This document shows positions 2,765-55,258 of a stretch of DNA of 64,000 nucleotides, piece by piece. Made by a program: the position numbers and the translations under genes. Location of the stretch: positions 1 to 64,000 of the forward strand of contig MU271273.1 in NCBI GenBank assembly GCA_021432655.1. The letters run 5' to 3'. Numbering within the stretch: position 1 is the first letter of the stretch; each line of letters begins with the position of its first letter. This DNA is from Atractiella rhizophila. Its lineage: Eukaryota. The notes beneath the pieces are model-generated. The model was not told the DNA's origin and did no database searches. It worked only from the letters and a program-made list of their open reading frames with translations.

Positions 2765-5084
2765 AATCCAAAGTTTGCATTGTGCTGTCTCCACAGCAAG
2801 GTGCTGCTACCTGTTCCTCCGCCTCCACCTGAAGAGCTACGAAAGCTTTTTACACATGACAATACAACAGGTAAGTATTTCTATTCAATTTTTTTGCATA
2901 TACATATCTGAGAGGAACAATCATTATAGAGTCAATGGCATTTCGAGAGCATATCAGGATATTCAATAATGCTTTTGCATTTACATCCTTAGGCGTCTGC
3001 CAGGTATCAATTCCTGGACATGGTCCCTACTCCTTCAAAATTCAGGGAGAGCTGTGCCACCTTATTGGCACTCTTTTACCACAACAAGAAGGATGTGAAA
3101 CATTTGCACAGGTCTACATTACAGATTCAGCTGTACAGACTGAACGAAGAGTTGGCAACACTTCAATATCACTGAATCATAGGACGCTTGAACACCTTCA
3201 GGCTATGCTCTTCCGTGTCAACCCATATCCCAGGATCTACAAATTTGCAAAAGAAAGAATGGAACAGGATCCCACTACAACACTACATCTTCACACAGTC
3301 GCCCCACGAGATAGGGACCCAAGACGCTACAACATTCCTGTAGCCAGTGAAGTTGCTGTAGTGATGGTAGGAGACGGTAACAGAGAAGAATATGGAGTGG
3401 CCAGAGATATTGTCATCCAGCTCAGGGCAACCAGGACCGGTAGCAACTTACAGCGTGTGAATGAGCTTAACTCAAATTATCTTCCACTTCGTTTTCCTCT
3501 TCTGTTTCCATATGGCGACCAAGGATGGCATCCGCAGATTCCGTATTGAGACCTGCCTGCAGATCTTCCTCCTCACGAGCGAGAGCACTTCAATGATGAC
3601 GGCATGCAAGTTGGTAATTCTGGGGTTCGACAATGTGTCAGCCAAATGGAGTTCTATTGCATCAACGAAATGATATATTCTCACTCCCTCTCTACGGTGG
3701 TCGGCTACTGCAAGAATTGGTAGTCGATGCTTATGCTCAAATTGAGGCGAATCGACTCCGCTATCTGCGGTTCAATCAAGTCTATTCTTCGAGGCGAGGT
3801 GTATCAAGGTCTTACGGACGCCCTTGCAGAAGGCTATTCTTTAGAAGATATCGGGAGGCGGACTATATTACCATCAAGTTTCACTGGCAGTCCACGTTCA
3901 ATGAATCAGCTGTTCCAGGATGCAATGACTATAGTTGGTGCCAAAGGACCCCCAAATATCTTTACAACCTTCACTTGCAACCCACACTGGGCAGAGATCA
4001 CGGAAGCCCTCCTACCAGGACAAAAACCAGAGGATTGACCAGATTTGGTTTCAAGGGTTTTTCGACTGAAGGCTCTGGAGTACATCAAGGATTTAGTGGT
4101 ACGACAGATCTTTGGAAGGGTTATCAGATATGTCTGGGTCATTGAATGTCAGAAGAGAGGTCTACCACATGCCCACATCATGTGGATGGCATCAACGATC
4201 ACGTGATTCAGTGGCTCGAATCCATGGGAGATCGGGTATATTATAGCGCAGATCAAATTATACATGACGAGGGAGATCTCAGAAATCGCTTCTCTGTTGA
4301 GTACCTGAATACCCTGGAGATATCTGGATTCCCTTCACATCGTTTACACCTCAAGACGGGTGCACCCATCAATCTTCTGTGAAATCTCAATCCATCTGTG
4401 GCCTGTGCAACGGCACGCGGCTCATTGTTACTCAGCTTCTCCAACGAGTCATCGAAGCAACCATCATTACAGGTGCACACAGTGGCGAATCAGTTCTCAT
4501 TCCTCGAATTGGCATTGACAGTGCAGTATCAAACCAGCTTCCTTTTCAAATTCCGGCATTTTCAATTCCCTGTGCGCTTAGCGTTTGCCTTAACTCTGAA
4601 TAAACACGTTTGCCTTAACTCTGAATAAAAGGCAAGGACAATCTGTTGGACATGTGGGTTTGTACTTAGAGTCTTCTCCTTTCTCTCATGGGCAGCTTTA
4701 TGTTGGTCTTTCACGGGTTTCAAATGCAAACAATTTACGAGTATTGGTCAAAACAAAGCAAGGAGAAGAAAACAAGCAAACAGATAATGTAGTTTACAAT
4801 GAAGTGTTACAAGTACTCAATCACTGATCATCTCTCAGCATGTTCCTAACAGTATAGTCAAAAGCTGAAGTGGTTCTCTGAGGTACGAGGAGACCACTCA
4901 GCTTTCATTGTTTTTGAAGACAGTAGAGTACATATGGTGAGTCTGTGCTCGCCGAAGGCGAGGCTCCACGCAGTGGCTGCCAGAGGCAAGAGCTCCACAC
5001 AGTGGCCGCGGAGGCTGGGGTCCAAGGGGCGAAGCCCCTGGCAGGGGGGGGGATGCCTGAGGGACGAGGGCACTGACACACTTG
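2765..5084 (+). mobile_element. Helitron copy A: 5'-truncated, internally deleted and non-autonomous
   Basis: Helitron N-terminal motifs (CC..KVLLP..PPP; NNAFAFTSLG; RRYNIP.ASEVAV; LPSSFTGSPR; FTTFTCNPHW), Rep HUH motif QKRGLPHAHI near 4150-4180, Pif1 helicase C-terminus ([22 protein letters not shown]). Stops and frameshifts. Subterminal hairpin and CTTG|T end at 5081-5085. 5' boundary approximate. Confidence 0.92.
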
Positions 5085-5199
5085 TATTACATAAAGCATG
5101 TTGAGTGAAGCTGAGAAGTCAAGATGTGAGTGTATGTATAACGAACTTTTCAACCTGCTCAGCCTGAAGTTTCTTTCACAATGGCAGCCACATCTGTTT

Positions 5200-8125: not shown

Positions 8126-9059
8126 TGTGGAGATAGGATCTCATCAGAAGCGAAAACTCATGATGAGTACCATTCATCGGAGTACAGAGTTCATGTTGCA
8201 GCACAGAACCGGTAAAAGCCACCGTTTTATTTAGACCTTGTCGCACCATTGTGGTTTCAGCTTTATGCATTTGTGATCTCTCCTCACAGGTTAGAAAGAC
8301 TGCAATGACATTCGTGAGTGATCAAGCAAGCAGGAATACTTTTTAGGGGGATAGCTTAAAGCATATTTTCGCTCTTTCAGAGATTGATGGAGGCATTCCA
8401 AGTTCTGTGGCAGTAGAGGCGAATTCATCTGGTGGAGGCGAATCCTGTCCCTTTCTGTGAATGGGTTCGACCTCCACTTTGAAGAGGAGTGAAAGGATAT
8501 CTTTGTCATTCTCCTTCTCTTCTAGGTAGCACAGGCAATCTTTGTGCCTGACCATGACAGTTCAGTCCTTATAATCTTGAGGGGGTATCCTATATGTTGG
8601 AGGCGTACCGAGGCATACCTTGAAGAGAGAGACCATCTTGTCAAATTCTTTGACACTCGAGCATGCCCTAACATATCTGATGGCTTCTCTTTTCATGAAC
8701 CCAGTCTTTTGTTTGTGCTTGTGGTATGAGTGAAAGGGATGGTAGAGGTACTGATTCATCTTCTTTTGAAAGATCTCGGTGGCCAGTCGTCCATAAGAGG
8801 ACAGTCCGATTCCTTATAGATGGTGAGATCAAGGAAGTCATACTCTGTGGACATATTGTGTGTGAGACATATTGTGGGGTTCAAAGAGTTGTACTTGTTG
8901 ACGAAGGAAGACATGGAGGTCCTCAAGATGGAATATGAAAGTGAAAGAGTTAATTCTCAAGTCAATCTTGGTTTGGCGAATGTGGCACGGGGAGAAAGAG
9001 ATAAAAGGGATAGAAGAATCGATTTCAGAAATGGCCACCTTCGCTCCAACACTCCAACA

Positions 9060-9603
9060 ACACTCCATCATGCTAGCCCAAAAGTCAAACCTAACAATCC
9101 TAAACCTTTCGATGGAACTAGTGCTAACAAGGACCATTTCCTTAGTCAATTATATCTCTACTTCGAGGCTCTTCCATCGGAATTTCCAACGGATCCAAGA
9201 TACTCTTTGCGTTGCCTTCATGACCGAGGGGCAGCAGCAGAATGGGCCAAAGTCAAAGTTGATGCTATTCAATTTCCTAATACCAAGGCTTCAAACGTTT
9301 CATAACCAAATTCAAATACTCTTTGGGGATCCAAATCAAGCAGCCACAGCAAGGCACAAACTATTGATACTCAAGCAGGGGAAGAAACCTCTTGAAGATT
9401 ACATTCTCGAATTTGAACAATTGATACCGATCGCAGGTCACAATGAAACAACGCTTGTGACCATATTTGGAGAAGGATTTCACCCACACATCGCTGATAC
9501 CATCGCCATTTCAGAGCATAAACCCAATACTCTTGAAGGATGGAAGACCAGAGCTCGGAATCTTGTCGTAATTGTCGCCAACGACAGGAAACCAAATGTG
9601 TAG
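9060..9603 (+). pseudogene. Ty3/Gypsy gag remnant
   Basis: PKPFDGT...FLSQLYLYF...FMTEG.AAEWA...FGDPNQ..TAR.KL..LKQG....EDYILEFE, split by frameshifts (ORFs 8820-9305 and 8935-9603). Confidence 0.8.
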
Positions 9604-15401: not shown

Positions 15402-16760
15402 TGATGGGGTACACTCACCTTTTTTGCGAATAGCATGCTAGCTGCTGGCGTCACGGGTTTGGTAACGGCTAACGATCCAAGTGACACTTGCAAGATCCTC
15501 CTCGGAACCTCGCCACGCATTCGATTTTACCTTTTCCTCAGTACGAATTCTAGCAGCTCTGCTCAAAACTCAACTAAATCGGGGCAAAATGGTACTGCGG
15601 CTCAGCCAGCCATAAGCTTTGCTTCTTTGCAGGAGAATGACTCTATTCTGATGATGTTCCATCGGACCCTCGCTGCGAATGAGCAGGTTGTAGCGTTTGC
15701 CACCGTTTGCCAATCCTCAATTCGACAGATATGTCGAGCAGGCTGACTTGAGCAACATTCTCTGCTAATCCTCCGTCGAAGATCCAGTGAGTTAATCGTT
15801 GTTGAGGAAGTCTCCTTATTTATTTGGGCTCCTCAGGCTTGCTCCCTGTTGCGCTCAACCAGAGGGATGTTCTCAAAGTCAGTCTTTCTCACTCTATTGA
15901 ATTCCACGACGTCCAATGAGCATTCATGATATACTTCAGGCTTTGCGTATGATCCATCTTCTGGACAATTGAAGCCGTTCTACGCTCCTGGGGTCCGATT
16001 AGTTGCTAACGATGCTAACGCAACCACTGCCAACTCCACCTCTAACTCCACCCTTCCAATTGCCCAAAGTTTGGTTCAGACGCTCTCTAGCAATTCCACG
16101 TCCAAACCGGGTCTACTCTTCCATCACCTCGTGGATGCTAATACTTCTGATAACTCGACTGCTTCTTCAAATGCCGCTGCTCCTGAAAATTTCTCAAACA
16201 CTACGACCAGGCTACTGGTGTCCAACTCCACTGTATCACTGCGGACAAGTCCTTCGCTCAGCAGACACTTGCTGCCGATACCGATTTGAACACAGTGGCC
16301 ACTCCCAGCATAGGTGCTTCTTCTGACTCCCTGCTGCTACCTCTCCGGTCACGGACTCAGGCTCGACTGGGACAGCAACTGATTCTTCGGCTTCCGCTCT
16401 GACACCAATGAGCCTGGCTGACACTAAAGGGGACGAGGATTCTGCGGATGATGAGATGATGGTTGGTTCTGACACGGATGAATTGGCCGCCGACTCTTCC
16501 ACGGCAGACTCAAGTGATGCTGAGATGTCTGAGTAAGTCACAAATCCCGCGTCTTTTGCATTGTCGGCTACCTTGTCCCCGAAGTGAGACAGAGACTCCC
16601 GCTGCTGCAGACGCTAGGACAGCAACTGATGGGCCTAGGATGGAGAGCAAACGACGACTACTGCGACTGAAGCGCCGACATCTGCTTCCGGAAGTCAGTA
16701 TCTCGCTCACTGCGCCCCCTCCGAGTCATAGTCCTCTGGACTGTCATCATGAGGAGTAGA
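15402..16760 (+). CDS. Hypothetical secreted or cell-surface Ser/Thr/Asp-rich protein with introns; possibly broken
   Basis: Hydrophobic start (LAAGVTGLVTA), many N-x-S/T sequons and low-complexity S/T/D tail in ORFs 15969-16289 and 16300-16750. Confidence 0.35.
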
Positions 16761-17729
16761 GTAATATGGATAGTTCAAGCCTTATGTAATCATGAATCCA
16801 TGTTGGTTCTTTCCTGACCCGAGCACGAGGTATTATTTGTTCCTTCTCGCTAAAAGATAATCCAATGAAAATCATCACATACAGTTGGGGTGATTGATTG
16901 ATTTATGAGAGTTCGCACGTGCCCCATTTAGTGCCATTGAAGTACGCGATTACGAATCCCAACGACTGTTACTCCTTTACTCAAGCTTTACTCTTTCCTC
17001 TACATTGCTTTAGAATCTCTTAGATTTGGCTGATTCGAGCTCTTCTCCAGTCACTCTATATATCTATGAACAATTATTAGTAGCTGCTTGCTTTTCAAAC
17101 ACAAGCTGGGGGCCTCTCGTCCCTCGGGGGGACCACATTGTGTTTCTGATGTTTTTCAATAAAAAGTGGTTGACTATGCTGTTAGGAACATGCTGAGAGA
17201 TAATCAGTGATTGAGTCCCTGGAACTTTGCAGGGCGGGTTGAGTGCTATGGAGGGGACGGAGTAGTGTATCTAGTGCCTGGGAAGTGCTGAACGCTCGAG
17301 GTTCAATGACAACTGTAATGGTCGCCAGAAACACGAACTAGAGACAACGTCAGCAGCAGAATTAACGGATGTCAGGGAAACACAACCCTCAATTGCGGAG
17401 TTGAGTCAACCCTCTCCATGACCACTCTGCATCCGCCATTCAAAAGGCATTGCTCCTGTGGAAGGACTTGAAGAAAGAAGGCCAATGGTGGAAGAATGGA
17501 TTGGTGGATGTGTTGAAATAGAGAGAGCTGGAGAGGAAAGGTGTGTGGAGGTCAACTTATTGCAGTACCACAAAATCCATGTTAGACAGTATATGTCTAC
17601 TAAAATATCGAAATTTCATATTGTAACTAGCAAAATTAGAACCGCTAAATTGATCTACAACCATAACGCAACAATGTAATGGGAATAGGTGAAATGTACT
17701 AGAATAATACAAGCCCACAAACCCTTGAA

Positions 17730-20700
17730 AGCCTTATATCGAGTCTGGAAGATACATTTCCTCATTCTGGTCTGCATCTCCTTCAACCAGAGAGTCGTCT
17801 GCATCCGGTTCGAGAGCTGTGTCAATGACTGTATCAGAGTGGTGGCGAAAAAGAATCCACGCGAATGCTCTACCGTTGCCGTCTTCAGCTTGAAAAATCC
17901 CGATCAAATGGTGGATCTGGTCAAGAGGTACAAGCCGATACTCGTCACTCCATTGGCAGAGGATCTACTCTGTAAGAGGTTTGCTCGTTTGCTGAAAAGC
18001 TGAGTGAGCGCGAAGAACCTGTCAGCCGTTGCATCTGCTGTTGGGTCGAAGAAGGACTCTGGAATTCGAATGTAGACGACAGCCTCACCATAGAAGACGT
18101 CTCCAGCATCATCAATGCCCTATCCATCATGTCAGAGGAGTTTGTAGCTCATATAAGTGTACTAATCTAAATCTGACCTGAAATCTGCGAGCCGTTCTTG
18201 CTTCGAATTTCCATGACCGTTCGAGTCTCCGAGAGCGAATAACATCCCCATTAGCCAAAGAACACCGGCCCCAGTGCTCCCATTTTGCAACAGTCCTCTC
18301 CATATCTTTCATCTGGATAGAGAACATCAACGATGTTCAGCTGCTCTTGCAAAAGTGCTTGGTTAAGGAGATTCCTTGATACGTGTTGTCCTGGTTGATA
18401 CGCTTTTTAAGATAACCGATCATTCCCTCCATTGGAAATTGCGAGTAGAGAATTCCTGGGCCCCAACAGGGAATCCAATCGGCAATGTGCAAGAGATGGT
18501 GGATGCACATGGGCATTCGAACAAGTCGAGATCGATCCCCATGTACAAATACCTTCTCCCAGCCTGTAACGAAATTGGCAAAATATTCTCGAATTTTGAG
18601 CCGCTGCTCTTCCGTAATCTGATGCTGCCATGCGAGCTGGCAGCCACAGACAAAAGAGTCAATTACGTTTAGGACATTGAGAGAAAATCCAAGGAGGAAA
18701 AGGCTAGGAAGAAGCAGCCAGTCATAAACGTCCCACCATTCGTGCATCTTGTACTGAGTGTTTCGAAATCGGTATGTGTTTTGAGGAGCCGCCTGAGAGA
18801 AGGTGTAGGGAATATCGATTTTGAAGTGTTCGATCATGTTCCCAAATTCCTCACGAATTTGCTGTGTCGGATGCCATGGTTCAGGAAGCGACTCCTGCTT
18901 GTTGATCCCCATGGTAGAATCGAAAATGAGTTCAGCATCATTCTTCCAATGGAGATGAGCAAGATCCCCAGCAAAAAAGGTCCAAGGATCACGAAATGTA
19001 GCGAGACCAGATATGGGCGTGATGGAAATGACGCCACTGTCACGAGCTATCTCTGAACGAGCTTTTTGGGTCGTCGCAAGGGCTAGGTCCTTTGCTATTT
19101 GTGTGTATTCTGTCGTTGTGCGAATGGGAAGATTTAGAGGATCGTAGGCGACTGGGCGATAATCAGGTAGTGTACCATCATCCTGGGGAAGCGATATACA
19201 CGGGTAATAGTAGTGTTGGCCAAGAAGCTGACCGATAAGCTTGTAAAAGCGACAGCCACACTTGCCTTGATGGCCTGTGCAGCCGTTAGCCTTTGCAGAG
19301 CCAAGCATGTCACCTATGTGTCTTTCAATGTGAGTTTTAAAGGAAGCAGTGTGAGACTCTTACCGAGCTTGTTGATCAGCCATCCTTTCCAAACAAACCA
19401 CCTTCGATATCCAGCATCCCACATCCACAATCCTCCACTCAACTTTGCCATAGCTTTATAGAATGGAATGAAGAACGATTGGATGTCAACGGGATTGTTG
19501 GGACCAGGAACGCCTAAGGTGAAAAATGTATGACGACGTTTCGCTCGTACGCCTGTGTCGAAGCCCAGAAACGAAAGGATGATGAACCACATGTTAGAGT
19601 CGCGGGTGGCATGGATGGCTGCACCGTCTGTCGAAGCAATAAAGACTGATTCTCGTTCGTCTTCCATGAAGCCAATGTTATCGTTGGCAAGGGCTTGGAC
19701 TGCTGTGCCGTGGTGGAAGTCATCGTAAGTGTATCCACGGCGCAGTTTGTCTAATAAATGCTCCGTTTTTGCCGGTGTTTCTCCCAGCTTCTCTCCAAAG
19801 TATCCCATCATCTCAACATTCTGTGGAGCCCGGAACATCGCCTTAATTCGATGGAGGGGATTGCAGAAGAGAAAATGCTTTTCACTCTTCTTCTTTGTTC
19901 TTGATGAATCGCCTGGTATTGCAGATCGTCCAAAGGAAAGAGAAAAGCGAGGTCAGTTGCATGGCACAATGACGCCGTTAATTTTGCACGAATGTGGACA
20001 TCTAAGTCTTTCGTTAGCACCTTCTTTGCTATTCGAAAACAACCAACTTGCCTATCCAACTTCTCATACTTGTCAAGATAGGAGCTGCAAGAGGCTCCAC
20101 ACATAGGCAACCACTCCCCGGCCAAGCCGCTGAGCTCAGCAAGCATCTTTTTTGCCTCAGGAAGGGTATGCATTTCATGCTTGCGCAAAGTCCAGTTTTG
20201 ACGATGGCCTTCATAGCTTGCCTCTTTCTCGTTGTTTCGGTGCCAGATTCGGAACTCGTCCAAAGTAAGTTGCCGCTTGTCACTAAGCCTGGGGATATCA
20301 TCTGGATGTGTTGGAGGAACAGATGAAAGATTCTTGGAGTTGTCGTCGTAAAGTGGCATGAGGATATCACGAATGTCGCTGCAACACAAAAACAAATATT
20401 AATGCCATTTTCATCACATGTGAGAATCCTTACCATAGCGGGGACACGTGTGTGAGCTCTACAGCTCCAATAGGTTGGGGGGCTTCATCGGGATTTGGAT
20501 TGTGATAAGTCTGCTCATCTTCAGCAATCGATGTAATAACTTCCACCTCCTCTCTCAGCTCTATGCTCTCTCCAACAATCATCTCATCACCATCGACTTC
20601 CATCTCTTCATCACTTCCATCATTCATGTTGCCTGCAGGAATTGCGTCGAGGTCTGTTGTTGAGATATTCATTTCAAGCCGGGAATGCTGAGGCTCAGAT

Positions 20701-20789
20701 GCTGGAGGCTGTTGTATCTTGGGTCGGACTTTCGATGCGTAAGGAACCCTTCGTGAAGGCACAGGATCCTTGCGGGTGCTATGCTTCAA
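17730..20789 (-). pseudogene. CACTA/EnSpm Tnp2-family (Transposase_21 plus DUF4218-like) transposase with introns and apparent frameshifts
   Basis: STDGA...W; VPGPNNPVDIQSFF; WDA...W.W; G|DMLG.AK.NG..GHQG..GCRF; GDLAHL...N; IHHLLHIADWI..WGP....QFPMEGMIG; WGR..L.NG..IRS; YGEAVVY. Start and end approximate. Confidence 0.85.
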
Positions 20790-21303
20790 TGAGATGGCGG
20801 AAGTCGCGATGAAATCAACGCGTAAAGCGGCACGTGTTGCTGATCGTAGCCCATCCTCCTCTGCCTTTTTCTTCCTGGCTCAAGCACGAATGGAGGGATA
20901 TGGCGACGAAGAGTTCCTAGTGGATCTCAGGCTGTCATGGAGAGGGATGGGATGGGATGTCGAACTAGGGTGCATTGAGCTGGATCTCATGGAAAGGACA
21001 AATAGGAGGATGCTCGATAAGAATTGGGAGGGATTCATATGGTGATACTGGTGCACAGAGTAGCTGAAGAAAGGTCTGCTTCTGTTTTCACTGCGATTGT
21101 TGTCAGAAATTCTGACACATTCCTCTCTTCTGGTGCAGAAATGCATGCATTAATTCGAAACATTATATGCACTACATTTTCGTTGAGACAAGAGAACGAC
21201 GACAGCTCCATCCATCCACCTTCCCCTCTCTAAGCACCTCATTTTACCACACTCCTATCTCTCCTACATGCTGCGATTCTCTCTGTTTCTTGCCAAAGCC
21301 ACA

Positions 21304-22245
21304 ATGTCGAGAAACAACGACTCCTTCGCTGACCGCATCCAAATGGCTACGCGGCGTGATCTCTTCTTGAATCCTTATGTCCAAGAGCTGGAGTCAAAGT
21401 TAGCTGAAGTGGAGACTGCGTTGGAGAGGGAGCAGACTGATAAAGATAAGTGGAAAAAGTTCTATATGGAGAAGGACGAAGAGGTCAATCGATTAAAGCT
21501 CCAGCTTGAGAAGGTTAGGAAGGCACCTCTGCCTGCAAAAGCAACCTACTCCGTATCGAAAGATCGCATAGAAGGCATGATGACCACAGAGTTTACAGAT
21601 CCCATCGCTGAAGTATCAGAAGAAGATTGGATCAGAAAACCAGTGAAAGCATACCGCCCAATCATAGGACAGGACGATGCGGACAAGCTTGGGATCTTCT
21701 GGGAACGAAAGCAAGCGGCTGCCGCTACGCGTACCGGAGTCCAGAACAATATCCTCGATCCAGTTCGGGTATTGCACCAGCTTATATTCGACGAAACAGA
21801 CAACACTGTCATTGGGGCTACGCAACTATCTCAGGCTACTGCCGATGTTATACGAAACAACGCCAGCCTTTACGCCAAAACCTACCTCAACACTACCAAA
21901 TCGATCAAGAACCAGACTGGGATCTGCAAAACGACATATCTTCCGAACATCCTGCGCAAACTCGAGTTGGATTACAGCACTGTCCTCTGTATTGGCAAGA
22001 CGGACTGGATGAGTCGCATCTTTGTGACTTTGGTGCTGAGGAATACCTGTGGGAGCATCTATGATGACGATGACGATGACGGTGAGGAGGTGGCTGCTAA
22101 AGGAAGCCAGATGGTTAAGAGAGGAGTGAAGCGAAAGAGTGATAGTGAGGGACCTGTTATATTGAGTGAGAAAAGGATTCGGATAGACGATGTATGTGAA
22201 GATCACAGCGAAGGTACGCATCTCTTATTTGGCTTGCATAGCTGA
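21304..22245 (+). CDS. Accessory ORF 1 of the TIR element (N-terminal coiled coil, acidic tract, basic NLS-like KRGVKRK); unknown function
   Basis: Open frame 21268-22245 with a plausible ATG at 21304; heptad-like ELESKLAEVETALERE; possible donor near 22213, so it may splice to the next ORF. Confidence 0.6.
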   Translation: MSRNNDSFADRIQMATRRDLFLNPYVQELESKLAEVETALEREQTDKDKWKKFYMEKDEEVNRLKLQLEKVRKAPLPAKATYSVSKDRIEGMMTTEFTDPIAEVSEEDWIRKPVKAYRPIIGQDDADKLGIFWERKQAAAATRTGVQNNILDPVRVLHQLIFDETDNTVIGATQLSQATADVIRNNASLYAKTYLNTTKSIKNQTGICKTTYLPNILRKLELDYSTVLCIGKTDWMSRIFVTLVLRNTCGSIYDDDDDDGEEVAAKGSQMVKRGVKRKSDSEGPVILSEKRIRIDDVCEDHSEGTHLLFGLHS

Positions 22246-22537
22246 TGATGTCAGTGAAGCTGGTAGGTCTATTGGCATAGCGGGAACAACAGTGTTGGCA
22301 TCAAAACCCAAAAAGAAGTATAGAGCAATAGTGCATTTTCGATCTCCTCAAATGATGAGATAATGCTGATTTCTGTGTAGTCCGACCTGCCCCAGGACCC
22401 ACACAGAGGCAAAACGATGATACAAGGCAAGAATCACCTGCACAAACAGTCTGCCACTGCACCGGATAGTATTGTAGCATCAATTGGTATGATATTTCTA
22501 CATTTCAACCAGTGCTTGAAATAACAAGTAGATAGAT

Positions 22538-24256
22538 TTGCTCAAAGCGATGGGTGTAGACGATGATACTGCCATCAACCTCAATATTCTGGCTACCTTC
22601 GTCGAAACTGGCATGTTACCTCTCAGCCAGGCTACCAGCGAAACCCTCACTGAATCAGCTACAAAACACCTCCTTGTGGCCGTAAACTCTGCAGAATCCG
22701 ACTTCCATCTTCCGATCGACGCAGATGACGAACAGTACACATCCGAAGACCTGCAGAACAGTCCTCGAGGGGATACGCTTGGCCATAACAGCCTTGGAGA
22801 AGAGATTCTGTTCCGCTTGAAGAGATGGGAGAACGTAGGTTCTCGAAAGGCAATTTTGGAGCTTCTACATGCTGTTTTGCGTGGCGCAATGGTCTCAAAG
22901 CGGTTGTGTAAGAGATGGAAAGATGCACACCCTAATTCTACTGAAGTGACGCCCTTACTCTTGAATTTCGGCTGCATTGGGAGGCTGGCAGAGAGTTTGG
23001 TCGAAACTTGGCTTGACGGAGGTGGCAGCAATGCTGTGGATGTAAGTGTCGTTCCTTATTCTTATGAGAGGATGCATATGCTGATTCAGGCCGGAAAGGA
23101 TTTACGTTTGGCCAAAGATCTCAAGGACACCATAGTGCAAGGCGAATATTCAATAGCGTTGCAGGAGAAGATGATGTATCGAAAAACCTTCACAACTCCA
23201 AACAAGGTAACAAATGAGAAGAATCCCCGAATCGAACAACATCAGATAAAAAAAAAAAAAGGAGGTGGCAGCAATGCTGTGGATGTAAGTGTCGTTCCTT
23301 ATTCTTATGAGAGGATGCATATGCTGATTCAGGCCGGAAAGGATTTACGTTTGGCGAAAGATCTCAAGAACACCATAGCGCAAGGCGAATATTCAATAGC
23401 GTTGCAGGAGAAGATGATGTATCGAAAAACCTTCGCAACTCCAAACAAGGTAACAAATGAGAAGAATCCCCGAATCGAACAACATCAGATTTCTCCACTC
23501 CATCCCCCCCCTGATGATAACGGTTTCCATCCTCCTCAACCTTCTTCCAGCGCCACTCTCCCTGCCATCGAGCACACTCTCTCTTCTATCAACCACGAAT
23601 TCTCGCCACCTCAGTCTGCAGACCATGCCCCACCTCCTGTCGACTGCAGTTTCCCTCCTATCAACCCCGTTTCCCCCTATATTGACCACAGTTTCCCTCC
23701 TCCCACCGATCCTAGTCTCCTGCTCCCCAAGCAAACCCATAGCGACCCACAGCCGGTTGGCACACCCAAATATGCACTCCCAGTTCAGACTCTGGATATC
23801 CAGCCTGTTCCATATCTTCTAGCACTGGGGGGGGCAGGCAAAAGGAGTTGGTATGAGCAAGAAAAAGAGAGGGAGATCGAAGAAGAATGTTGAGGAAACT
23901 GGTGGGCTGCCACAAGAGGAAATATTGAAGTTGCACGAGGATGTAGAGCAGCTGCGGCCACTGTTGGACATGAATACAACGGCACAGCTTGTAGAAGCTA
24001 AAAAACTGGCCAAGGACAACAACTGGAAAGCATACCATTGGAAGAAGATGCTGCAGTATCAAGTATGCCTTACGTGTCTGCCAGCTAACTACTTACCTGA
24101 GGTTAGGTGATCAACAAAGAGGTTATCATCACCAAGTTCAACTCCATCGACAAAAGAACTCTCGAGCTTCTCCGGCTCCTTAAAATGGACCAAGGCAATC
24201 GATCCCTACTGCCAGAAGTCGCGAACGAAGGATGTAGTGCACTAGCGGTGCCTTAA
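22538..24256 (+). CDS. Accessory ORF 2 of the TIR element (internal 81-codon duplication, Pro-rich region); unknown function
   Basis: 451-aa open frame 22538-23893 continued in another frame at 23853-24110 and a probable last exon to about 24256. Confidence 0.55.
23018..23490 (+). repeat. 230-bp direct duplication separated by an A13 tract
   Basis: 23018-23247 versus 23261-23490, four substitutions seen by eye; A13 at 23248-23260. Confidence 0.95.
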
Positions 24257-24716
24257 ACGGACAGCTATCACGACGACGATCAGAGAAGGAGCGAGGTGGA
24301 TCACCTGATTGAGGGTACTATGGCGACATTGAAGGAGCTGGCACTGCATGGGATGATGGTGTAGTGTAGTGGAGACAAAGATAGGGAGTGCAAAGCATGC
24401 ATGTCATAGTATTTCGGTGTATCTGAGCAGAGACTGGATGCCCCCTGGAGCAACACTGCAAAGACACTACGAAGGCACTGCAGAGCACTAATCTCAAGCA
24501 CGAAAGCGACACTGACTTAGCACAGACTGCACACTAAAAGCACCAGATATACAATTTAAGCAAAAAACACCGACTAGGCACTGACCTGCACTGACTGCAC
24601 TAAGTGTGGACTGCTGCGGAGCCTGCGGAACCAAAAATCGTCCCTAAACTGATCTAACTCTGCACTGTTTTGGGGGATGGTGCATAGTGCATTGAGTGAC
24701 TACAGCTGCACTAGGT
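24230..24716. repeat. Subterminal (G/A)CACT repeat array of the TIR element
   Basis: About a dozen GCACT/ACACT motifs before the right TIR; four inverted AGTG(C/T) motifs at 17241-17290 after the left TIR. Confidence 0.7.
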
Positions 24717-25006
24717 CCGCCCTGCAAAGTTCCAGGGATTGAGTGCTCATAACACTTCTTTGGAACTACATTATCTGTTAAATTGTGTGCAGGCACTCAC
24801 AGCTTCAAGAGTGACAAATGTGAGGGAACAAAGAATCGAAACGATACCAAAAACAAAATTATGTCACACTCTCACTTAACACCAACTACACCATCGCACA
24901 GCCTCTTTGTCTTAAAACCCGATGTTAAGTAGGTAAGGAAAACTTGCCCTAAGTACCAACTTGACGCACAATTATTTTTTGTCCTTTAAATAAGCTTTGT
25001 TGTGTA

Positions 25007-28000
25007 CAAGTGTGTCAGTGCCCTCGTCCCTCGGGCATCCCCCCCGCCAAGGGCTTCGCCCCTTGGACCCCAGCCTCCGGCGGCCAGTGCGTGGAGCTTT
25101 GCCTCTGGCAGCCACTGCGTGGGGCCTCGCCTTCGGCGAGATCAGAGTTACACTTGTCCTGCAATTGTCAAGTGTGAAGAGTATTGTCAGTCTATTTGCA
25201 TACGTTTTTGTAGATTCAAAACTTCTCTATATTCTACATTCTCAGTTTTCTTATTATCAGTCACTTCCACTTGATGTAAATAAACTCTAAGATTCTTCAC
25301 ATTTGAAGCTCTTGACAGTCTGACATAAAGTTGTCCATGAGCAAACACAGGGGTATCCAAGTATAGGCTAACAGTCTCAACTGACTGACCCTGTGACTTG
25401 TTGATAGTGAGGCAGAATGCTAACTTGATTGGGAATTGAAACCGGCGTAGGACAAAGGGAAATGAATTGGAGACTTTGCTATCCAAAGCGATGCGTGGAA
25501 TGAGAACTGAGTTGCCTGCGAATGCACCTGTGACAATTGTTGCCTCGATGACGCGAGAGAGTACCTGGGTAACGATCAAACGTGTACCATTACAGAGCCC
25601 AGCAGAAGGGTTGAGGTTTCGAATGAGGATGATAGGGGCTCCGACTTTGAGATGCAAGCGATGAAGAGGAAGGCCCGTAACATTGAGAGTATTAAGGTAC
25701 TCGACCGTAAAGCCTTGCTGAACATTCTCATTGTCATCCATCAAACGATCAGCACTGAGATAAATTCGTTCCTGTCGGGAGATAAATCTTCGGATAAGCT
25801 GATCATTTATCAGGTCGACATCAACGTTTCGAGCAGTGAGGACCATGCGCTCTTGGAAGTACTGCCTCAGTTGATCACGATATAGGTCTTCAGTAATGGT
25901 GTTAAGCCCAGGATAGATGTCATTTAAGAGACCTTCCAGGCCACGTGAGTGTGGGATTATTGTTCCATCCTTCATGGTCAATGGACCACAACCACAGTCA
26001 TCTGGGTTGTCAGTTGCACCATTTCCAACTGACAGCAACCAATTAGCAAAGTCAGAAGCGATAGCAAAGTCATCAGCTGCCATATCAGCCTGGTGACGGA
26101 GAAGACGCATGTTGGCCGTGAGAGGAAGGATCGTAACTGCTGGCCAAAACGGACTGTTGATGACACATGCATCAACAATCTGTGCACGTGAAGCCTTGGG
26201 AATGACAGAGAGGCATTGTCGCATGTCACCTAATCTATTTATCAGAGGTGAAGTCTTTGAATTATCCCACTTACCACCTAGAACAAAAATTACTCCGCCA
26301 AAAGGCGCATCTACTTTACGCATATCTCTCAGCATCCGATCGACTGCCTCAAAGCACCAACGATGGCTCATACCCACTTCATCCCATATTATCAATTCTG
26401 CCTCACGGCAAAGTCGTCCATGATCACTCTGAGCCTTAACACCACAGATTGAATCTGCTTCAAGGTCCAATGGTATTCGAAAGCGTGTGTGGGCAGTTCG
26501 TCCCCCTTCCAACAGGATAGCAGCAATGCCTGAGGAGGCCACAGCGAGCGCAATCTTCCCAGTTGAACGAACTTTGGCAAGTAGTAAGTTTTCAACAAAA
26601 GTCTTTCCTGTCCCTCCTGGCCCATCAATGAAGAACAGACCTCCACTTCCCTCTTCCCAAGCCGCTATGATGGTGTCATAAGCATGACGTTGATCCTAAT
26701 TAAGCAACAGCACCCCCCTGTTGAGACGCTCTTGAAGTTGTAGACGATCATATGCCAGCTCTTCACCAATTATTTTTGTCTCACCCCCCCACCTTTCTAA
26801 CCTCTCTGTCGGTTGTGGTAGTCCAAAATCCGACAGAGACTTTGTGTGAGCCTGTAAGAGATCTTCAATCTCGAGGAGACAGAGACTGATGATTTGTTCT
26901 TCGTGCGGATTGGCTATACCGTACTTTGTCTGCAGTAAACGTTTGCAATCATCGCTAAGTCGTTGAGATGGTTGTCCCATAACGTTCTTGGTTCACTTGC
27001 GACACCAAAAAGAAGGATATAGACAAAAAGGGACCGCATAGCATGACCATTCTTGACTGAGCTGGCTTCCTCAAGGCAAAAGTCCCATTCTTCATCGCTT
27101 TCTAAAAGTCCCAGTGCCACACATGCGGCTTTAAATGTTTCATAAACCCTTCCCTCCACTGTCCGAACATTCTCAAAAGACTTTGGGCTGGCTACCTTGT
27201 GTAAGAGAAGTCGGAGGTAGAAAAGCTCTCCTTGTGATGGTGCAACATAGTAGATCCTTCCAATAGCTTCTCCTCTCTGCCTGATTTTCTATGAGCATGT
27301 GTTTGATTTCCAAGTAAGGTATTGAGGTGCTTTTGGATATGTCAAGTCCTCAGTAATGTCGGGGTGTTTCATATAGAAGTCAAAAAATTGAGTTAGTGTG
27401 GTCTTGCTAATGTTTGGGCTGGAAAGGATATCGTTGAGGGACTCTTCCTCTGGATTGAACGTGATAGACTGTTGATTGGGGAGGTGGATGGCTAATCGCT
27501 TGAATGTTGGAAAATGGTGATGCAATTGAAAGCGGAAGATGCGGTAACAGGCTAAGATATATGTCAGACAATCTAAAATATGCTGAAACGTACGTGCATT
27601 GTCACAGCGTCGATAAGTTGGATATCCATCGTCATTGATGCCTGGCTCTGCTGCAAATGGTTTGGGGTACCCCTTGCTACAGATCTTTCTGCCTGGCCTT
27701 TTAGGATCCTCTACCATGCAGGGACTATCTGGATTAATGTCTCCACATGGTCCATGAAGCATATGCTGACATACAATATCGAAAAGCTCGGGGTCAGCAT
27801 CTTTGTCTGGTAGTTCGGCGGATACAACATGGTCGATAGCTTCAGCATCCCTAATGGTATCTTGTGGATGAAGAATGATGAGAATATGAGTATGAGGTAG
27901 ACCACGTTTCTGAAACTCAATTACCCAAACAAATCCGACTGTCCTCCCGAAGATTGTGTTCTCTTTGATCTCCTGCATATAGGCTTTAACCTTTACACTG

Positions 28001-29516
28001 AAGACCCTAGAGACCAAATCTGGTATGTCTGTAGCGGTTTGTCCAGGCAGTAAAGCTTCAGTGATTTCTGGCCAGCGAGGATTGCAGGTAAATGTTGTAA
28101 AGATGGTCGACCAGTTTTATTGCCGACCAACTCTGACCCCTTGGACGACGGGTCTGCCAAGAATTGTATTCTTTTTCTGTAGGGAATCTCTTCAGCTGGT
28201 GCAGATTTGCTCTCAAATGGCACGCACCTTTGGAAGATAAATTGGCTATAGCAGTGGCACTTGTTGCCTTGGACTTCCATGCCGCTGCTTGCTGTGAGAG
28301 ATAGCAACACTTCTAGGATGCCCATGTTTAGAAGATCACTGTTGATATCATCTGTGGAATACGTCAGCCACACTTCTCGCTGGAAAGCCGCACAGCTTAC
28401 CACTCAAGTCCAAACAGCTGCACGAGCCGTCATCTCAGACTGGATGCTGATCGGCACAGTTGAGGACAAGTTACTTGATTTTATCCACAGCCCCGGCTTC
28501 AACCATACCTGACTTGTTCTTCCCGCTCGACGCCGCGAGATTATGGAGAGTGGAGATGGCATGACATTGTATCTCTTTGTTCTCGTCGTATGCCAGCAGA
28601 TCGATGAGGAGATAAGGAAGCCGGATTCAATGAAGGAGAACTCATTCACGGGATGGATGGAGACGAAGGTCGGGGAGGAGAGGATAAGAGGTAGGAACGA
28701 TGATTGAAGGAGATGAAGAAGCGGAGAAGGCCGCCAGATTTGACAATCTCAGTTTGAGATTTCTCTGTTGTGGAATCATAGGAGTTGAGAAGAGAAATGA
28801 ACAGACCATTCAGATGTGAGGTTTCAGAGTGCCAAAGCGGCTTGACACTGGACCTTAAGCGAAGGGCTGTCCATGAGGGTGATGACATTCTGAACAAGCT
28901 TCAGGTTTGTATTCAATAACTTCTTTCGGTTGTTGGCTGTGATGCACCAGTAAGAGAAAGTTTTTGGACAGGAGGAAAAGAAAGCCGAGCCATCAACAGC
29001 AAAGTTGGACAGAGCCGTTGTGCAGTAGTACTGAACGTCGGTGTCGGGAGAGCTGCAGGCTTACAAGGACAGACATTGCTACTGCATTGACGAGCTGTTG
29101 GCGATTCTCATCTGTTATAATTTCAGTGATGTCACATTTGGCAGACTCAGGGAGATAAATCACCGCTCTGTGTCCTGTTCAGGAGAGCACCAGTAGCATT
29201 CCGCTGGACGCGCATGTCCTTGCTTTTTGTATAAGAGGAACGAGAGCACTGGATCTTGCAATCCTAGTTTTACCCTCATCTGGAATGGTATCAGTTTGCA
29301 GCCGAAACAGAACGTCCGCTTCTTGATTTCTGACCTTCCCTTCCTCCTCCCTTAGCCCAGCAGTCACCTTCATATGCTCTTGTTTATGGTAGTTAAAGTA
29401 CTCAATGTCGGACCTGTCTCCGCCACCTCCATTTTCAGTTTCCCTGTCCTTTTCCCTTTTATAAATAGCGTTGTTTCTAGTGCTGTGGCAGATGTCAATA
29501 TATACAAATGTAGAGA
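25007..29516 (-). mobile_element. Helitron copy B, the most complete Rep-helicase copy; defective
   Basis: 3' end CTTG|T at 25007 with subterminal hairpins; candidate 5' end A|TCTCTACATTTGTATATA at 29516 (tentative); Rep and Pif1 helicase coding inside. Confidence 0.88.
25187..28110 (-). pseudogene. Helitron Rep (HUH endonuclease)-Pif1 helicase with stops and frameshifts
   Basis: TFTCNPRW; EFQKRGLPHTHIL; YPTYRR; FKAACVALGLL; Walker A DGPGGTGKT near 26600-26630; IIWDE; APFGG; LCNGTRL; TINKSQGQ; HGQLYV. Confidence 0.92.
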
Positions 29517-32411: not shown

Positions 32412-34878
32412 AGCATGTGGATATTTTAAAACGGATGGACACCTGCAACCGAATTTTCTTCACCAATACTTCAAAGTCAAACCCTGGATCGGCGGCACCA
32501 AACGCTCCGCATTGCACCAAGAAGGTCGTCAGTCAAAGGTCCAATGAACGGGTACAACCCATCAACGTCAGACGTATGGCCCTTCGTCAGGCACAGGTAC
32601 AGAGGGAAGTGGGATGAGAGACCCTGTTGATGTGTCGCTGACGACGGGTCCACCACTTGCTGCAGTCGGGGCGACTGGGTTTGCATTGATGGTAAATGTG
32701 CTGATGTGCGACTCGTTCCGTCCTCATCTATTGTGATCGCCTGAGTACCAATGTTCGTCGAGAACTAAAGACACTGACTAGTCCAGGCAATAAAATAGCT
32801 ACTCCTAGTTGAAAGGGTGATAGGCGGCTCCACCGTGGTCGAGCCGTCCGTTAAGGCGACTGGAGGGGAGAGAGGAGAGTTTGAGAGGAGCTCGATGGAT
32901 GAGGTGGTTGTGTAGCTGAGGAGTAGGCGGTGTTGGACGGAGGCAGTGGATAGGATGTCCGAGAGATCCCCGAATGATGAAAGGGTAAGGAGAGAATAGA
33001 CAGACCAGGACACTTTAAGCTGATCCCTGCAGTAAAGACAGTCCGGAGGTAGGGAAAGTGATATCAGGCGAGTACGATGTAATCTGCCTTCCTTTCAGGT
33101 CTGCTCGAGGCTAATGCGGAAAGTCTCTCTCATTGTTGAGGATGAATGGAGATTCCAAAACGGCACCACAGCAAGCGAAGAGAGAGAGCGCAAACATTAA
33201 CATAGCCACTGCCACCTCCGATGGTATATCGCTGTAGCAAGCAGTTAGAAATGGCTGCAATACCTTCGTTGGTGCACAAAGCTCCAAGGTGGTGCCTTTC
33301 CATGCGTCAAACTTTATCTCCGCTATCTCACCCTTTTGATTGATTGCTGACTCCCTCATCCATCAAGACGGGAGACGGATGACACTAACAAGGGGTCAGC
33401 TGTTCAACTTGAGGCTCGCACCTCCTGATCGTGTGATGCTCCGTTTAGAAGTCTCCCACTGCACCATCTATGTACCCATTATACTCTTCTCTTGAGAAAT
33501 CTGTTAAACCCAAGTAAGCCGCCTCATCGGCCTCCGATGAAGACAGGGGTTCATTGCATTTGTTGAGGTGACTCCACCAAGAATAATCACAACGACCACC
33601 ACCAACGGCCGCCTTGAAAACGTGAACGACATGAACCTGCTCCCGTTGGGGTCCTGCAGCTCCTAACCCTCTCGATTAGGGTTAAGAAGGAGATCCGTGG
33701 ATGGGTTTAGTATGTCAAATGTGAGGCATTGAGATGAGTGGGAATCTGTCAAAACGTTCCTGTAAGTTCTGGCGGCTTGTTGTCCATGTCGAGTCAAAGA
33801 GCGCATCGCATCGAGGCGGAGTAGTTGTGGTAAGGAAGAAGGAGGTGTTCAAGGTTTATCCATGGTAGATCGCGGAGTCCGGTCATAGAATACCTGGCTG
33901 CTGGATTGAGGGATCCGTATGACCCATATTCAACAACGCAACCTCAGCCCGAGACTGAGATATAAAAGCGAAAGACAGTGTCCCATTCCTCTTCACTCAT
34001 ATCTGCTACAATATGGAAGCTTTCGCACACTCTAACCAGTGGAGAATTGTCGTGAATCCATTTCAAGCTCCTTGCTTCTGGTACTTGTCTGACTGTACTA
34101 TGTAAGCAAAGGTGGAACATCGCTACATCATTGAGGTGGATGGAGAACAACACACCCTTCCTGAAGAGCTTGTCTTTGCTGTCCTCGTAAGATTGCTTGC
34201 CAGTTCGTTCTTTTGGCTTCATCTGTCCTGATAGCAAGTGTTGATGGATGGGACAAGGTGTCATTAACGTCCATCTTAGTTTGTGAAACGTGTCCAACTC
34301 CTTGGCCTTCAATTGTCATTCTAGAGACAAGTTCATCACTCAGGACGTGTTTCTCCTCCCTAACTTCTGATGTTTGATCTCCAGAAATGACAATCGGATG
34401 TAAATGAATTTGCTGTTTTTTTGCACCTCTTCTTGATTAGCCAGGATGTCCGCCGCTCCTTTTCTCCTTTTTAGTCTCCCGAGAGAGTGAATACAATCAC
34501 GATACAATATCAGTACATCAGGAGGCTTCCAATTTCAAAAGCCAATGAATTGAGAGCGAGCCTTTGCAGCAAATAAATCTAACGAACCTTCCGATCTGCT
34601 TCTCTGTTCTTCACTGACACTCCCTCTACTTTAAAAAATGTCCCATAGATCACATTCGGAATGAACTCTTTTCTAGCCGCAAAATTTGGATCAGTGAAGC
34701 TTTGAAGGAACGCAAGCAATCGTTGTATTGTTGAGCTGAAAGTTGAGAGTGATGAAAGGTGTCCTTAAGGCAACCAAGTAACTTGTGAGTAGACATTCGT
34801 GGGCTTTTAACGAGTAGGAAGGATCAACGTCGAAGGACTATTATGTGCACAGTGCTGAGTATGCATGAAAGCGCTGAA

Positions 34879-51043: not shown

Positions 51044-51055
51044 GGTTATGAGCCC
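51044..51055 (+). promoter_or_regulatory. Primer-binding site of the half-tRNAiMet type
   Basis: GGTTATGAGCCC immediately after the 5' LTR, resembling the anticodon-arm PBS of Drosophila copia and yeast Ty5. Confidence 0.8.
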
Positions 51056-51132
51056 AAACGCCTGACCAGCAAGATCAATACCATTCACACCCACGAAGAA
51101 AACACCTCACCAATCCACTGCTAACAGCCACC

Positions 51133-54100: not shown

Positions 54101-55258
54101 CTCCCGGATTCGACGATGGGACGGGACGCGTCTACAGGCTCGTCAAAGGGCTGTACGGCTTGAAGCAAGCCGGAAGGATCTGGAACATCAGGCTCAACAA
54201 GGTCCTCGAGGGCCTCGGGTTCAAAATATCAACAGCAGACTACTGCGTCTACATTCGCAGGACGGGAGGCACCGTCACGACCCTCTTAGTCTGGGTTGAC
54301 GACATCGTGCTTGTCTCGAACGACAGAACCGAGCTTGCAACAGTCAAGGAGGAGTTGCAGCGTGCCTTCGAGGTCACAGACCAAGGGCAGGGCAACCTCC
54401 TGCTCGGAATCCAAATCCTACGAGACAAGGAGAAGGGCACGATTGCACTTTCGCAAGCAAATTACGTCGACACCATGCTCAAGCGCTATCACATGGAGAA
54501 CGCAAAACCTTCATTTATTCCAATCGATCCGAACACAAAGCTGCTGCCGAGCAGCGACAGCGATTCTCTTGTCGACGAAAAAACTCTACCAAGGAGCGGT
54601 TGGATCGCTCATGTACGCCGTGATGGGGACGCGTCCCGACATCGCGTTTGCGGTCCAAACTGTCAGTCAATTTTCTTCAAAGCCAAATCAATCGCATTGG
54701 ACAGCGGTCCAACGCATCTTCCGCTACCTCAAAGCGACGAAGGAACGGGCGCTTGTTTACGGGGGTGACGGAGGGAGGCTCACCAAAGTTGTCGGGTACT
54801 GCGACGCTGACGGGAACTCCAGCGAGGCAAACGGACGCAAAGCCATCTCTGGCTACGTGTACCTTGTGTCGGGGGGTGCGATATCTTGGTCCTCAAAGAA
54901 GCAGACCACAACAGCGCTATCAACTACTGAAGCCGAGTACGTCGCAATGTCGCATGCAGCCCGGGAAGCCATCTGGCTGCGAAAACTCTTCACGGACATC
55001 GGATTCGCACCAAACGGCGCAACCACTCTTTTCTGCGACAACCAGGCCGCGATATCTCTCTCGGCGAACCCCGAGTTTCACCGTCGCACAAAGCACATCG
55101 ATATAATCCACCATTTCATCAGAGATCAAGTCACTGATGCGAAAATCGACGTCGCATACGTACCTTCCGAGGAAAACCTCTCTGATATTTTCACCAAAGC
55201 TCTCTCAAGACCTGCGGTGGACAAGTTCACTCAAGAAATGGGATTGGTGACGGACTGA
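51133..55258 (+). CDS. Copia gag-pol polyprotein (gag, CCHC knuckle, protease, integrase, RT, RNase H) with one frameshift near 54580
   Basis: CFNCGKKGHFKADC; WLGDSGTTSH; WHRAFGH...C..C; SDVWGP, DQGSEF, GVAERMNRTL; KARLVAQG; LYGLKQA; VWVDD; second frame LYQGAVGSLMY...CDAD...STTEAEY...KHIDI. Confidence 0.96.

Follow-up and report, generated by a model that had tools for sequence, protein, structure and literature searches.

Does a transposase of the Tnp2 type, known from short target-site duplications (TSDs), also occur in a form that duplicates a longer stretch of target DNA? The length of the TSD is among the most stable characters of DNA-transposon superfamilies because it is set by how the two active sites are positioned on the target DNA, and the question is raised by a locus on contig MU271273.1 of Atractiella rhizophila, analysed here in a stretch of 64,000 nucleotides (the window). 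The best explanation of this locus, to which about an even chance is given, is a structurally complete cut-and-paste transposon of the Tnp2 kind (Pfam Transposase_21), on the CACTA/EnSpm-Plavaka side of the CMC/CMCT clade, with a 7-bp target stagger in an Atractiella-like (Pucciniomycotina) genome.

The element is a DNA transposon of 7,521 bp (~7.5 kb) spanning window positions 17217-24737, and its features are collected in Table 1. Its terminal inverted repeats (TIRs), each reading CCCTGGAACTTTGCAGGGCGG on its own strand, are identical at 21/21 positions, and the termini are CCCTG..CAGGG, i.e. CC..GG. With up to 3 mismatches allowed, the 21-bp sequence occurs just 2 times in the window, while 2 or more matches were obtained in 0/100 shuffles. 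Elsewhere in the window there is neither a second copy nor a solo end, and no repeat-flanked TIR pair with CCCTG ends. Beneath both ends short motifs are concentrated: 7 of the element's 13 GCACT copies fall in its last 330 bp, against at most 2 and on average 0.2 in windows of this size beyond the element, and the inverse motif, AGTGC, is present in 3 copies within the first 75 bp. Both the perfect, mismatch-free ends starting with CCCTG and the subterminal CACT arrays described in an initial annotation of this DNA are thus confirmed, the former as a unique pair in the window.

Table 1. Coordinates of the transposon, its target site, the host Helitron and the empty paralogous sites (window positions)
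Feature	Position	Strand	Remark
Empty paralogous site A	4815-4821	-	ATTGAGT once
Left target copy ATTGAGT	17210-17216	+	single in empty paralogous sites
Left TIR	17217-17237	+	internal palindrome CCCTG..CAGGG
Left subterminal AGTGC motifs, 3 copies	17242-17288	+	
Tnp2-type transposase gene	17964-20804	-	tblastn of relatives, splice and frame tests, PF02992 in relatives
ORF2, several exons	21304-24253	+	coiled-coil-like N-terminus; opposite direction to transposase
243-bp in-frame tandem duplication inside ORF2	23018-23490	+	two 230-nt copies, 98% alike
Right subterminal GCACT motifs	24341-24712	+	8 in last 420 bp, 7 in last 330 bp
Right TIR	24717-24737	-	perfect inverse of left TIR
Right target copy ATTGAGT	24738-24744	+	adjoins right TIR
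PIF1 helicase ORF	25187-26695	-	host Helitron
Helitron_like_N (Rep) ORF	27289-28116	-	host Helitron
Empty paralogous site C	61642-61648	-	ATTGAGT once

The heptamer ATTGAGT directly adjoins both TIRs. On its own it is not rare, with 14 matches in the window against 12.7 expected; what makes it evidence is where it lies, together with the empty sites. Two paralogous sites in the window, A and C, read ...GATCAGTG ATTGAGT ACT(T/C)(G/A)TAACACTT... on their reverse strands and carry the heptamer once (2/2), homology between the filled and the empty sites being limited to a left-hand stretch of ~47-52 bp and a right-hand one of ~35 bp. The initial annotation had described the same flanking repeat, single in the uninterrupted copies; both sites bear this out, except that copy C had been placed one base off, at 61643-61649. 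When contigs of two public runs from one sample (X1 and X2) were compared with the filled site, further copies of the host repeat without the element were recognised: 2 contigs of X1 and 1 of X2 showed the joint 17216->24764, and loose ends past 17216 reading ACTCATAACACTT... were present in 5 X1 contigs and 7 X2 contigs. Since ATTGAGT is single in the two copies of the window and in the contigs of these runs, the net gain of the insertion is 7 bp.

The bases T17216 and A24738 are complementary, and the inverted repeat can be extended to 22 bp. The net gain of 7 bp is therefore equally consistent with a TIR of 22 bp and a TSD of 5 bp (TTGAG). This complementarity had been overlooked in the initial annotation, whose statement that exactly 7 bp were duplicated stands as a net gain but not as a decision for a 7-bp over a 5-bp stagger, the boundary being ambiguous. 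The placement of the element inside a Helitron, also proposed there, agrees with the Helitron_like_N and PIF1 ORFs at 25187-28116 on the reverse strand; in the direction of that strand, the helicase ORF is followed by the insertion after ~440 bp.

The nature of the transposase was approached through its relatives. The window's own ORF at 19314-19952 matches PF02992 with E 0.026 and 14.1 bits, below the cut-off of 28.6. A 340-aa ORF used as a query recovered 436 related proteins at E<=1e-3, and 64 of the 89 relatives of at least 600 aa were scanned for the PF02992 and KDZ domains. PF02992 is present in 50/64 of them, namely in 14/14 (E<=1e-3) and in 36/50 (E<=1e-5). Two of these 36, P0080 and P0095, score slightly below Pfam's own PF02992 cut-off. 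In tblastn the relatives are collinear with the window on 20386-18217, including the stretch that bears PF02992 in the relatives, and it is through these relatives alone, by transitive homology, that the window transposase is classed as Tnp2-type; the assignment of the initial annotation is supported in this indirect way. The window retains the columns that are invariant among 20 aligned sequences (D17, D132, H135, E207 and E311 in the 340-aa ORF), and an HHLLH (H-x3-H) motif follows the second D. As a point against the preferred reading, the C(2)C position reads C-R-F-Y, with GCRFY in the window, GCRFC in some relatives and GDRFS in many. The suggestion that the catalytic E is mutated (YEN to WKN) was rejected, as this column is not conserved among relatives. 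Outside proteins named Atractiella, the best relatives reach at most 40% identity over the 340-aa ORF.

The first Met of the open frame lies at 20672, the start codon and the 3' exons being uncertain, and the proposed introns are 20433-20379, 20051-20002 (GC-AG) and 19363-19314. The frame is interrupted by a TGA at 19955-19953 and probably by a 1-nt frameshift near 18375. Given these two lesions, the present copy is probably no longer autonomous and cannot show that the enzyme is active at present; if still mobile, it would need the enzyme of a sister copy. Runs X1 and X2 and the paralogue P0016 show diverged and internally deleted copies, as expected of a family that has been mobile.

The second gene of the element, ORF2, is without any Pfam family. 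Eight relatives were found, all named Atractiella rhizophila, and ORF2 is a lineage-specific gene; the leads from the protein atlas were weak, none of them above 0.85. Its 243-bp tandem duplication is missing from the sister protein P0152.

For the clade of CACTA, Mirage, Chapaev, Transib and Plavaka elements (CMCT), TSDs of 2-5 bp and termini of 5'-CA..TG-3' 'in most cases' are reported (Kojima 2025, PMC12730594, section 3.1.6). The CC..GG ends depart from this usual form, a departure compatible with membership under a rule stated for most cases, and the net duplication of 7 bp lies outside the reported range, whose upper limit is reached only when the boundary is read as giving 5 bp. Plavaka elements are described with TSDs of 2-3 bp (PMC12730594), PlavakaA having TGT..ACA ends and a 2-bp TSD and PlavakaB CATCA..TGATG ends and a 2-3-bp TSD (section 3.2.2, Fig. 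S2), and neither matches the present element in termini or TSD. With Plavaka and fungal EnSpm it shares a Tnp2/Transposase_21 DDE transposase of ~900-1000 aa, a TIR-bounded length of 6-9 kb, a host among the Basidiomycota and the H(3)H-like HHLLH motif; by their descriptions it is set apart from them (CAC..GTG in fungal EnSpm) through its CCCTG..CAGGG ends and a net duplication of 7 (or 5) bp as against 2-3 bp.

Plant En/Spm (CACTA) elements have two genes, TnpA and TnpD, and inverse short subterminal repeats near both ends. The present element resembles them in its two-gene layout and its inversely oriented subterminal repeats, and differs in its TSD (3 bp in En/Spm) and in an ORF2 without Pfam similarity; DUF4218 and Transpos_assoc are absent from the window's ORFs. 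Sly1-1 of Neurospora crassa, also a fungal CMC-type element, similarly combines a transposase with an adjacent divergent gene of unknown function, but is 11.5 kb long and belongs to the Ascomycota (PMC4592977). Transib/RAG1, in the wider CMCT clade, has the longest TSD reported there (5 bp), equal to the alternative reading of the present element, and CACAATG-type ends unlike those seen here; fungi are reported to lack Transib (PMC5751038).

Whether the stagger was 7 or 5 bp can be weighed by the coincidences that each demands. A 7-bp stagger would require one, the complementarity of the first and last TSD bases (~1/4). A somewhat unlikely alternative retains the same element and mechanism with true ends T-CCCTGG...CCAGGG-A (22-bp TIR) and a 5-bp stagger, the TSD TTGAG lying between A and T. 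It would call for a target in which the 5-mer is preceded by A and followed by T, in agreement with the last and first bases of the element, and hence for two coincidences (~1/16) or a special target preference. Such flanking preferences do exist, since Chapaev3, of the same clade, is described as always inserting between A and T (PMC4079192). The inverted repeat indeed reaches 17216/24738, and in the one other diverged copy with a visible end (X1 record 3 = X2 record 8) the alignment likewise starts at 17216, with an apparent T before CCCTGG; this T would favour the shorter stagger or a target preference by ~3-4 to 1, but it is seen in one copy only and would occur there by chance in ~1 in 4. 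A duplication of 5 bp falls inside the CMCT range (PMC12730594, section 3.1.6) and is the known length for Transib, while for Tnp2, Plavaka and EnSpm elements proper (2-3 bp) it is as unreported as 7 bp.

The single insertion seen would also fit a family whose usual duplications are as short (2-4 bp) as those of CACTA/Plavaka elements, the present one being an aberrant one-off event of integration or repair, and certain fungal DNA transposons are reported to vary in TSD length (4-8 bp in KDZ2 and KDZ3; bioRxiv 10.1101/2025.05.19.654958). This account is improbable: the duplication is perfect and adjoins perfect ends without filler or deletion, and PlavakaA (TGT), PlavakaB (CATCA) and fungal EnSpm (CAC) all have ends other than CCCTG, so that a different geometry is unsurprising. 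An origin outside the Tnp2/CMC group was considered as well, since Kyakuja, a fungal group of the KDZ type, has 7-bp TSDs (PMC12730594, section 3.2.1). It is barely credible here: Kyakuja elements are without TIRs and end in CA..TG, as against the perfect 21-bp TIR and CC..GG of this element, their transposase is unrelated, and the KDZ domain was found in none of the window's ORFs (4 scanned to E 10, the other 6 to E 0.01) and in 0/64 of the scanned relatives. hAT7 shares the 7-bp TSD too (PMC12730594) and differs by its CAACGGTGGG ends and a hAT transposase.

For the preferred 7-bp reading, the observed ends, duplication, empty sites, gene content and homology lead us to infer the following course. 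The DDE transposase would recognise the 21-bp inverted ends, probably assisted by the GCACT subterminal motifs and perhaps by the divergently transcribed ORF2. It would then excise the element and join the C...G ends to target DNA cleaved with a stagger of 7 rather than 5 bp, and gap repair would leave ATTGAGT duplicated in the 3' part of the Helitron.

Other copies and prior descriptions were sought in sequence collections and in the literature. A metagenome scan with the 18-base core of the TIR gave 18 loci, all by chance, with the CGG continuation at 0/18 and blastn similarity to the element at 0/18. The 21-mer TIR had 0 matches in the genome contig collection, where alignment yielded a single fragment of a Tnp2-like gene, terminal on a MAG contig (L019, 9947-10766) and lacking the ends of the element; among 19 pattern matches in viral contigs there was no relative. 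The literature search returned nothing on Atractiella transposons, no CMC or EnSpm paper describing a target site of 7 bp, and no paper using the term 'CMCWR', by which the initial annotation had described the end rule. The literature consulted, Kojima 2025 included, describes no duplication of this kind in a Tnp2/CMC family, and the visible parts of the tables in its supplement (PMC12730594) contain no CCCTGGAAC or CCCTGCAAAG string, although a related family may still be listed there.

A 7-bp TSD is in itself already known among fungal DNA transposons, in Kyakuja and hAT7, through unrelated transposases. What is probably new is a Tnp2-type element with a duplication of 7 (or 5) bp and CCCTG ends, seen in one insertion, and for this reason the claim is for now a lead and not a result. 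The broader proposal, that atractiellomycete fungi carry a distinct Tnp2-type (CMC/CMCT) lineage with a 7-bp stagger and CCCTG rather than CAC/CA ends, is tentative, its chances being put a little below even. Annotation pipelines that sort by TSD and end motif would misclassify the family of such an element. If the proposal is true, this 7-bp lineage would lie beyond the 2-5 bp of the whole clade and deserve a subgroup of its own, comparable to hAT5, hAT6 and hAT7 within hAT. It would also provide two related enzymes, paired by nature, with which to probe what determines stagger length in RAG-like DDE transposases. The known range of the clade that contains RAG1 and Transib would be broadened by a Tnp2-type enzyme whose duplications measure 7 (or even 5) bp and not 2-3 bp, and structural studies of stagger length would gain a point of comparison.

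The element is 7,521 bp long (17217-24737) and carries a perfect 21-bp terminal inverted repeat (TIR), CCCTGGAACTTTGCAGGGCGG, at both ends. A search of the 64-kb window for this TIR, allowing up to three mismatches, returned the two element ends as sole matches, and two or more matches occurred in 0 of 100 shuffles. The inverted repeats and the flanking ATTGAGT repeat described in the initial annotation were thus confirmed at both ends. This heptamer matches 14 times in the window against 12.7 expected; because it is not rare in itself, its weight comes from its position and from the empty sites. Each TIR is also partly palindromic (CCCTG-GAACTTTG-CAGGG, at 17217-17234 and 24720-24737), which would allow a short hairpin to form at either end.

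Positions and strands of features in and around the element
Feature	Position	Strand or orientation	Remark
ATTGAGT, left copy	17210-17216		directly outside left end
ATTGAGT, right copy	24738-24744		directly outside right end
Transposase gene	about 20804/20672 down to about 17964	minus	
Intron	20433-20379	minus	frame restored
Intron, GC-AG	20051-20002	minus	frame restored
Intron	19363-19314	minus	frame restored
ORF2	21304/21466-24253	plus	several exons
PIF1 helicase ORF	25187-26695	minus	Helitron, just right of insertion
Helitron_like_N ORF	27289-28116	minus	Helitron, just right of insertion
Empty site A	4815-4821	reverse	host repeat uninterrupted, heptamer single
Empty site C	61642-61648	reverse	host repeat uninterrupted, heptamer single

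The paralogous sites A and C both read ...GATCAGTG-ATTGAGT-ACT..TAACACTT..., as previously noted, although the earlier coordinate of copy C was one base off. Homology between filled and empty sites is short, about 47-52 bp on the left and about 35 bp on the right. Contigs from X1 and X2, two public runs from one sample, add further host-repeat copies without the element; the joint 17216->24764 occurs in two contigs of X1 and one of X2, and loose ends behind 17216 reading ACTCATAACACTT in five and seven, respectively. Because of sites A and C and these contigs, the net gain at insertion, exactly 7 bp as first proposed, is solid. The interrupted repeat is part of a Helitron, as the adjoining PIF1 and Helitron_like_N ORFs indicate, in agreement with the original placement. 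In copy D, which holds the element, a Helitron block of 100-146 bp (25005-25146) flanks the insertion-site block on one side, but in copies A and C (4942-5086 and 61737-61851) on the other, so that the arrangement of the Helitron is not the same in all copies (tandem or rearranged ends).

T17216 is the complement of A24738, and the repeat finder carries the inverted repeat across both, so the same filled and empty sites fit two readings. For this single insertion, C...G ends with a 7-bp target-site duplication (TSD) have an even chance or slightly better, and would take one coincidence only, namely complementary first and last TSD bases (~1/4). T...A ends, with a 22-bp TIR and a 5-bp duplication, TTGAG, would take two, an A before and a T after the target (~1/16), and are clearly the less probable reading, if a possible one. 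The sole other copy with a visible left end, diverged and internally deleted (record 3 of X1, identical to record 8 of X2), aligns from 17216 and includes the T, in favor of the shorter duplication. A flanking preference is also conceivable by analogy with Chapaev3, of the same wider clade, which is described in an excerpt of PMC4079192 as always inserting between an A and a T.

The element carries two divergently transcribed genes. The longest transposase ORF (18337-19359, 340 aa) retrieved 436 proteins at E<=1e-3 from a library of 1.84 billion representatives. Pfam scanning covered 64 of the 89 relatives of at least 600 aa: PF02992 (Transposase family Tnp2) was present in 14/14 at E<=1e-3 and in 36 of 50 further relatives at E<=1e-5 (two of the 36 scoring just below Pfam's own cut-off), one relative had DUF4218 alone, and a KDZ domain was found in 0/64. 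Within the window itself, PF02992 matches below threshold (E 0.026), so the minus-strand transposase gene takes its Tnp2 label transitively, from these relatives. Collinear tblastn alignments over three exons, and retention of columns invariant among 20 aligned sequences, support the label, bearing out the initial annotation by this indirect route.

An in-frame TGA (19955-19953) falls within the conserved C-x-x-P-R-[YF] motif, and a one-base frame shift near 18375 is seen relative to P0003 and P0016, both Atractiella paralogues spanning the site. With these lesions, the transposase of the present copy is damaged; the frame shift may instead be an assembly error in an A-run. Differences of X1/X2 contigs from window 16500-25500 are mostly transitions (X1 places: C>T 140, G>A 136, A>G 117, T>C 89). 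The TGA could be one of them, and a RIP-like or deamination process may be a candidate cause of such transitions.

For ORF2, the second gene, no Pfam family was found, and its eight relatives are all named Atractiella rhizophila. P0152 (757 aa) is nearly identical inside exons and lacks the 81-aa in-frame tandem duplication of ORF2 (23018-23490; 243-bp, 98% alike), which seems to have arisen recently and in the present copy alone. P0156, an Atractiella protein otherwise related to ORF2, ends in 26 residues that match 100% at 33415-33492 (plus strand), about 9 kb outside the element, suggesting that its gene model joins a transposon ORF to an exon far away. GCACT is grouped beneath the right end (7 of 13 in the last 330 bp; elsewhere in the window the maximum is 2) and its inverse AGTGC beneath the left (three in the first 75 bp), in keeping with the CACT subterminal arrays recognized earlier. 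En/Spm elements have a two-protein, subterminal-repeat arrangement, which the two genes and subterminal repeats of the Atractiella element resemble.

Among transposase relatives, the nearest (92%, 83% and 83% identity) are all named Atractiella rhizophila; together with all ORF2 relatives and the 26-residue match, they show that the window comes from this or a very close species (Pucciniomycotina). X1/X2 contain many pieces of the element that are diverged (under 90% to 99% and above) or have internal deletions, and P0016 is a gene model that sits on a deleted form of it; the family is therefore multicopy and has been mobile. A metagenome scan for the TIR gave chance matches alone and no relative, and scans of other collections yielded no usable match. 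A Tnp2-type transposase gene fragment, up to 64% identical to the relative P0021, lies at 9947-10766 of L019, ~1.2 kb from the end of this 1.68-Mb contig labelled uncultured Acidobacteriaceae MAG; G+C falls there to 0.47 versus 0.53-0.62 around, and the fragment may be a chimeric join or contaminant. Mobile elements abound in the window: the ORFs at 51052-54768 (+), 8902-9603 (+), 3618-4145 (+) and 43498-44019 (-) comprise a Copia-type polyprotein (1,238 aa), a gag fragment and a weak extra Helitron_like_N fragment, and beside these an ORF whose domain is of the Zn(2)-Cys(6) type of fungal transcription factors.

In excerpts of Kojima 2025 (PMC12730594), the CMCT clade (CACTA/Mirage/Chapaev/Transib/Plavaka) is given TSDs of 2-5 bp and, in most cases, CA..TG ends. 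PlavakaA there has TGT..ACA ends and a 2-bp TSD, PlavakaB CATCA..TGATG ends and 2-3 bp, and rust EnSpm CAC..GTG ends and 3 bp; Kyakuja (CA..TG ends, no TIRs) and hAT7 have 7-bp TSDs, Zisupton and Dileera 8-bp ones. CNEST, a Cryptococcus CMC (CACTA/Mirage/Chapaev) element, shows TA duplications and CACGG ends in an excerpt of bioRxiv 10.1101/2025.05.19.654958. Among the families described in these excerpts, a fungal 7-bp TSD is thus known, though not with a Tnp2-type enzyme, and CCCTG is absent from the ends given. The element has the transposase of the CMC/CMCT clade, but not its end motif or TSD; compared by these descriptions, it probably works like CACTA/Plavaka elements and falls outside PlavakaA, PlavakaB and canonical EnSpm as defined. 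The possibly undescribed fungal CMC lineage with an altered stagger that was initially proposed is partly supported: it agrees with the Tnp2-type enzyme and the net 7 bp, seen in one insertion that fits a 7-bp or a 5-bp duplication. The element is probably a new variant among Tnp2-type transposons.
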